A stretch of DNA of 64,000 nt from sequence record KX828711; one strand, 5' to 3'. Source of the stretch: Shigella phage SH7. The notes beneath the pieces are model-generated. The model saw nothing but the letters and a program-made list of their open reading frames with translations, did no database searches and was not told where the DNA came from. Each line of letters starts with the position of its first letter. Within the stretch, counting starts at the first letter, position 1. This document shows, piece after piece, positions 37,751 through 38,206 of the stretch. Made by a program: the position numbers and the translations under genes.

Positions 37751-38206
37751 TTATTTTAAATCGTCTGCCCAATCGAGTTTAAGAGGCTCTTTGTATTCAC
37801 GATCTAATACGACCGGAATTTGTACATCACCGCTAAATGATAAGGGCCCAACATTATAAGACAATGTTATATGCGGTGTGTAATCATCAAAATCATGTGT
37901 AGCACCTAGTGCCCGCGCATACATGTGTCGACAGCGCAGATATTCAGAATCTAGCACAAGTACAAGAGTCGATCCATCTTGTGTTTTCCATACTTCTAAA
38001 TGTCCAGAAGAAGCTACTTCAAAACTTCCACTCGATGGAACATACGGAACATTTACTCTTGAATAACATATGGTCGAATGAATTTTTTCTCTAGGAACTG
38101 GATTAGGAACACGTAAAGAGCGCTGAAGTTCTTCCAGCGCATCAAGTGTTAATTCTGAAAACTTAGCTGCTACATAAAGACCCGTTGAAAAGTCTTTAAA
38201 TTCCAT
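37751..38206 (-). CDS. 57B: 2H-phosphoesterase (gene 57B; Acb1-type cyclic-oligonucleotide phosphodiesterase)
   Basis: 151 aa; two H-x-T/S motifs (HSTI, HITL) of the 2H superfamily; position next to 57A and gene 1. Confidence 0.75.

Follow-up and report, generated by a model that had tools for sequence, protein, structure and literature searches.

The window analysed here, a stretch of 64,000 nucleotides from Shigella phage SH7 (KX828711), derives from a Tequatrovirus distinct from T4; over positions 37000–39200 the best phage records, such as that of Hafnia phage IsaacDaniel (Tequatrovirus ime09), are 98–99% identical to it. On the minus strand, which carries all the genes given with coordinates below, an open reading frame of 151 codons runs from an ATG at 38206 to a stop codon ending at 37751 (37751..38206, stop included). 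Its upstream neighbour is gene 57A (38206..38448), which encodes the tail-fibre chaperone (Pfam PF17594 GP57, E 5e-51), and its downstream neighbour is ipI (37389..37676), which encodes internal protein I, in the same order and orientation as in T4 (NC_000866). The 57A gene is in turn preceded by gene 1 (38448..39161; dNMP kinase, Pfam DNMK, E 1e-103), the first gene of a probable 1-57A-57B transcription unit. On the other side of ipI, ORFs resembling trna.4 (61 aa, probably a membrane protein), trna.3 (139 aa) and trna.2 (97 aa) fill positions 36455–37312, and these are followed by a cluster of 11 tRNA genes (Arg, His, Asn, Tyr, Met, Thr, Ser, Pro, Gly, Leu and Gln; 35336–36357).

The product of the 151-codon frame matches the Pfam family PF23474 (Anti-CBASS protein Acb1) with E 2.6e-60 and 202.7 bits, the cutoff being 27, its residues 8–149 covering positions 1–144 of the 144 of the profile, and no family other than Acb1 was found by Pfam at E<0.1. 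A search of the PDB sequences retrieved Acb1 of Erwinia phage FBB1 (7T26/7T27) with E 4.1e-62, identical residues being found at 96 of the 141 aligned positions (68%). Given these two matches, the frame is not a chance ORF. Furthermore, the protein alignment with T4 gp57B (NP_049750.1) yields 100% identity over 151 residues, and the coding sequence, 99% identical to that of T4 (NC_000866), differs from it by three synonymous and no non-synonymous substitutions.

The original prediction had read this frame, from its two H-x-T/S motifs (HSTI and HITL) and from its position between ipI and 57A as in T4, as gene 57B and as a 2H phosphoesterase of the Acb1 type. The 151-residue ORF and both motifs are indeed present, the GP57 and IPI_T4 families and the gene order of NC_000866 confirm the position, and the 100% identity to T4 gp57B together with Acb1 as the sole Pfam family settles the type. 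The alignment to T4 Acb1, proposed at the time as a check, shows two proteins identical apart from an extra first Met in T4, and the statement that T4 57B has been reported as Acb1 is borne out by the literature (PMC9117128). All things considered, the best explanation of the locus is that 37751..38206 is the acb1 gene, corresponding to gene 57B of T4, in a T4-like Tequatrovirus, a reading to which we assign a probability of roughly 97%. The gene is therefore already known: its product, as far as its primary structure tells, is the founding and both biochemically and genetically characterised member of the Acb1 family and, because it is residue for residue that enzyme, the copy in the window teaches nothing new biologically.

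The extra Met of the T4 protein deserves a comment. In T4 the annotated 57B begins at the first ATG of an ATGATG sequence overlapped by the TGA stop codon of 57A, and this additional N-terminal Met gives rise to the 152-aa RefSeq model. In the window the stop codon of 57A is TAA (38206–38208; GAATAATGG), as opposed to the TGA of T4 NC_000866 (74407–74410), so that only the second of the two T4 ATGs exists. The second ATG is thus probably the real start and the 151-aa form the translated one, and the RefSeq model of T4 57B may be one residue too long. It is for this same reason, namely the presence of only the second ATG and the annotation of T4 one Met longer, that the residue numbers given here for the window protein are one lower than those of the literature.

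With this shift in numbering, the nine residues singled out in the paper on T4 Acb1 all occur in the window protein. The first catalytic H-x-T motif, located by sequence and alignment, is H43-S44-T45, followed by I46 (38072..38080, minus strand; T4 H44/T46), and the second is H112-I113-T114, followed by L115 (37865..37873, minus strand; T4 H113/T115), their surroundings in the translation being KIH-S-T-ICYS and PH-I-T-LSY, respectively. The remaining five, i.e., Y11, W73, F106, E140 and W146, correspond to the nucleobase-contacting residues Y12, W74, F107, E141 and W147 of T4. In an alignment of six homologues drawn from five genera (among them Karamvirus, Bragavirus, Lazarusvirus and Pseudotevenvirus) together with FBB1 Acb1, H43, T45, H112, T114 and Y11 proved to be invariant across homologues having between 41 and 80% identity. 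The compact 2H phosphoesterase fold is predicted for the window protein by its homology to 7T26, which extends over 141 of the 151 residues; a single-sequence AlphaFold2 model (mean pLDDT 38, pTM 0.30) was unusable, so that assignment to this fold rests on the homology to the crystal structure.

What this enzyme does has been amply documented in T4, where gp57B was found through activity-guided fractionation as the activity degrading 3′3′-cGAMP and was named Acb1 (Hobbs et al. 2022, PMC9117128). Deletion of acb1 abolishes the cGAMP-degrading activity of T4, and the FBB1 structures show the fold to be that of a 2H phosphoesterase, in which the pocket is U-shaped and bears a C-terminal lid (PMC9117128). 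Catalysis by T4 Acb1 is metal-independent, relies on the H44/T46/H113/T115 tetrad and passes via a cyclic phosphate as its intermediate, with the cut 3′ of adenosine; the bases are stacked upon by Y12, W74, F107 and W147, E141 reads the N6 of adenine, and replacing both histidines (H44A/H113A) leaves an inactive enzyme (PMC9117128). As to the infection, T4 Δacb1 grows normally on hosts lacking CBASS and more than 300-fold worse on those endowed with it (PMC9117128), and on a host with CBASS there is a depletion of transposon insertions in 57B, which makes the gene conditionally essential there (bioRxiv 10.1101/2025.11.20.689424). The same enzyme also has a cost for the phage: T4 Acb1 degrades 2′3′-c-di-AMP and, by degrading the decoy nucleotides of Panoptes systems, triggers these systems, from which phages escape through inactivation of acb1 (PMC12657230, PMC13577387).

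For the Acb1 of the window, both cleavage of cyclic nucleotides and rescue from CBASS are taken from this literature on the identical T4 protein. By this analogy, it would be a small metal-independent 2H phosphoesterase whose U-shaped pocket, shut by the C-terminal lid, should accept cyclic di- and trinucleotides containing at least one adenosine (3′3′-cGAMP, cUA, cAAA and similar), and whose HxT/HxT tetrad would cut the 3′–5′ bond 3′ of the adenosine via a 2′,3′-cyclic phosphate intermediate. Removal of the second messenger made by the host CBASS cyclases would keep the CBASS effectors off and, since these would never be switched on, the infected cell would not be killed before the phage has finished. 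The same activity would be expected to expose the phage to the Panoptes guards, which fire upon degradation of their decoy cyclic nucleotides.

As regards its expression, acb1 appears to be tied to the genes that precede it. The gene 1/57A and 57A/57B junctions (the latter reading GAAGAATAATGGAATTT) both consist of a TAATG overlap, in which the stop codon and the following ATG share a single base, final in the one and initial in the other, and these stop/start overlaps suggest that gene 1, 57A and 57B are translationally coupled. Just after the stop codon of gene 3 and upstream of gene 1, sequence inspection and a pattern scan revealed a match to promoter consensus sequences (39187..39216, minus strand) that constitutes a candidate middle/early promoter; it consists of GTTTAA-TGCTTCA, with a MotA-box-like portion at 39204–39210, an 11-nt spacer and TATAAT (39187–39192), and bears a resemblance to the early promoters of T4 as well as to middle promoters with a MotA box. 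Thus, 57B would probably be translated by coupling to 57A from a message starting upstream of gene 1, with a middle/late timing. The candidate promoter agrees with reports that T4 57B (acb1) is a gene of middle/late expression; indeed, the cGAMP-degrading activity appears ~15 min into T4 infection (PMC9117128) and acb1 is expressed later than acb2 (PMC12657230).

Among the promoter patterns sought in the window, that of the T4 early promoters (GTTTACW-N17-TAYWAT, with at most one mismatch) was found 21 times against 1.9 expected, the matches spanning 5688–39216; 20 of the 21 are on the minus strand, and there is none past 39216, where the late structural genes start. The late-promoter motif TATAAATA, on the other hand, occurs 15 times against 10.5 expected and is not clearly enriched, for which reason its copy within gene 1 (38804–38811) is not claimed as a promoter. 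A generic σ70 scan gave 16 sites compared with 15.1 in shuffled sequence, together with one weak terminator-like site, and by itself says little, unlike the T4-specific pattern.

Downstream of acb1, the organisation is of a different kind. The product of ipI matches Pfam PF11634 (IPI_T4, E 2e-53) over residues 20–95, which make up the mature IPI*, and is 99% identical to T4 IPI, an injected inhibitor of the type IV restriction enzyme GmrSD; the original prediction of an injected anti-restriction protein next to acb1 was thus correct. The gene is bracketed by a 54-nt direct repeat whose two copies, 81% identical, were identified from the repeat itself, from their folding and from the promoter scan. 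Copy 1 (37698..37751, minus strand) starts at the final nucleotide of the stop codon of acb1 and copy 2 (37330..37383, minus strand) lies downstream of ipI and upstream of trna.4, the trna.4-like ORF being directly behind it. In copy 1 an early promoter (GTTTACA-N17-TACTAT, 37738..37709) is contained inside a 13-bp hairpin; both promoter and loop are shared by the two copies, and the sequence of the stem differs between them, yet pairs in both, the calculated folds amounting to −16.1 kcal/mol (z −3.4) for copy 1 and −18.3 kcal/mol (z −3.9) for copy 2.

Elements of this type, known as PeSLs (promoter-early stem-loops), are recombination-prone boundaries of cassettes in T4-type phages (PMC2839356, PMC4122927), and the consensus established for T4/PST is TTTACW-N17-TAYWAT (PMC4122927). 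A repeat of ~50 nt, a consensus promoter placed over a stem-loop and a variable gene in between are all found around ipI, and the bracketing elements are PeSLs by these features. The conservation of promoter and loop, combined with a stem that changes its sequence and retains its pairing, suggests that ipI is a swappable cassette. In fact, the gene that follows acb1 varies, being IPI in the window and in T4, Ip7 in Karamvirus and unrelated small ORFs elsewhere.

These data bear directly on the remaining claim of the original prediction, namely that 57B and ipI form an anti-defence islet. What stands is that two anti-defence genes are adjacent and that both counter host defences. Furthermore, the slot beside acb1 contains another internal protein in Karamvirus, the above-mentioned Ip7, and in the T4-like phage Bas37 a different type IV restriction inhibitor that acts against McrBC (bioRxiv 10.1101/2025.11.20.689424), so that this position repeatedly holds injected anti-restriction proteins. 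The idea of a single co-regulated and co-inherited islet, whose genes are moved and expressed together, is nevertheless unlikely. Through its stop/start overlaps acb1 is joined to two genes unrelated to defence, 57A and gene 1, and the order gene 3-gene 1-57A-acb1 is kept in five genera of the Straboviridae (Tequatrovirus, Karamvirus, Bragavirus, Lazarusvirus and Pseudotevenvirus), whereas the gene downstream of it varies. By contrast, ipI is served by an early promoter of its own and enclosed by two PeSL repeats, and the reported timing of the two genes is also different, acb1 being middle/late and IPI being packaged and acting on injection. Finally, other anti-defence genes of the same window are located far off, namely nrdC.1 and acb2, the latter being the second anti-CBASS gene, at a distance of 10.7 kb. 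This conserved block order, together with the variable slot next to it, indicates that acb1 does not belong to a single mobile or co-regulated islet; rather, it closes a conserved block and lies beside an exchangeable slot, in which injected anti-restriction proteins tend to be found.

A further, quite doubtful extension of this picture would have the region downstream of acb1 consist of a series of swappable cassettes, ipI between the two PeSLs being followed, behind the second of these, by trna.4, trna.3 and trna.2, with at least one among these three as a candidate unrecognised anti-defence gene. The three ORFs match only PHROGs of unknown function. Should there be anti-defence genes among them, the islet would be real and larger than two genes.

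An alternative to the acb1 reading, taken at face value from the databases, is that 57B is a LigT-like 2′–5′ RNA ligase or an RNA-repair cyclic phosphodiesterase acting on the ends of tRNA or RNA near the tRNA cluster, which begins ~1.4 kb downstream of acb1. The 57B protein does match PHROG 755 “RNA ligase” with E 5e-68, the RefSeq record of T4 and those of many relatives name it “RNA ligase”, and the two H-x-T/S motifs are common to the whole 2H superfamily. However, Pfam yields Acb1 and neither a LigT nor a 2′,5′-RNA-ligase model at E<0.1, and the window protein possesses the features peculiar to Acb1, namely the residues stacking on the nucleobases and the tryptophan of the C-terminal lid. 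Moreover, it was the identical T4 protein that was isolated as the cGAMP-degrading activity lost upon deletion of its gene (PMC9117128), and this published biochemistry in effect refutes the RNA ligase identity, which we regard as highly improbable. No NCBIfam match was found for the protein at E<1 and, considering also the lack of a LigT-type Pfam score, “RNA ligase” is best seen as an inherited superfamily label rather than as a tested function.

The label is a widespread one. Searched by tblastn, the 57B protein was found in 1,484 of 50,697 phage records, in 497 of them at ≥99% identity, the carriers being mostly phages of Escherichia, Klebsiella, Shigella, Acinetobacter, Vibrio and Aeromonas. 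In the matched records, RefSeq T4 included, the frequent designations are “hypothetical protein” and “RNA ligase”, with “cyclic phosphodiesterase” being rarer, and the first two should be replaced in the public records.

That the window carries a decayed or inactive allele, like T4-like phages that escape Panoptes (e.g., Bas43, through a nonsense mutation), has a vanishingly small probability since, although loss-of-function acb1 alleles are natural and arise readily under Panoptes selection (PMC13577387, PMC12657230), this possibility is ruled out by a frame that is complete, free of stops and frameshifts, and identical at every residue to the active T4 protein.

The acb1 gene is thus intact and it is accompanied in the window by other genes directed against host defences. 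The acb2 gene (T4 vs.4; 26784..27050) encodes a protein 100% identical to T4 Vs.4 (Pfam Acb2_Tad1_hairpin, E 7e-20), so that both anti-CBASS genes are intact and, judging from the T4 data, the phage should resist many CBASS systems and be sensitive to Panoptes, a prediction useful for anticipating its host range. The nrdC.1 product (11285–11524), also 100% identical to its T4 counterpart, has been reported as an anti-defence factor (bioRxiv 10.1101/2025.11.20.689424). The PCR primers for acb1 that were applied to phage Bas35 (PMC13577387) have exact matches in the window at 37262–37283 and 38537–38560.

A separate observation concerns the internal proteins. No homologues of T4 ipII and ipIII were detected in the window by tblastn at E<1e-5; their position upstream of gene e is occupied by a pair of ORFs (28640–29113 and 29130–29447), one of 157 aa belonging to DUF7412 and PHROG 3155 (“internal virion protein”) and one of 105 aa belonging to PHROG 3966 with no Pfam match, and both begin with the capsid-targeting motif MKTYQEFI(A/T)E. 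These two ORFs are predicted, from their sequences, to be probably alternative injected proteins.

It remains to compare the locus with the systems already known. With respect to T4 itself, the protein is the same and the surroundings differ in part, the tRNA region of T4 comprising 8 tRNAs and the homing endonuclease gene segB as opposed to the 11 tRNAs of the window, from which segB is absent. Closest among the structurally defined enzymes is FBB1 Acb1, solved as the apo form (7T26) and in complex with 3′3′-cGAMP (7T27), which shares the HxT/HxT tetrad, the equivalent of Y12, the glutamate and the C-terminal tryptophan and aligns with one single-residue gap; the differences concern two nucleobase-stacking aromatics, W73 and F106 of the window protein being replaced in FBB1 by F and Y, respectively. 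More distant are the divergent Acb1 of PDB 9Q2G/9Q2Y and other viral 2H phosphodiesterases, with which the family of the 2H fold and the conserved HxT motifs are common ground, whereas the similarity of the divergent Acb1 to that of the window is marginal (E 0.004). A preprint on the viral 2H phosphodiesterases describes them as degrading immune nucleotide signals with a substrate specificity that varies with the core fold (bioRxiv 10.1101/2025.08.21.671373). LigT and the cellular 2H phosphoesterases have two H-x-T/S motifs as Acb1 does, but the lid and the aromatic pocket for cyclic oligonucleotides are features of Acb1. Acb2 (Vs.4), finally, is directed against the same pathway, its targets being likewise the CBASS signals; unlike Acb1, however, it has an unrelated fold and acts as a sponge that sequesters these signals without cleaving them.
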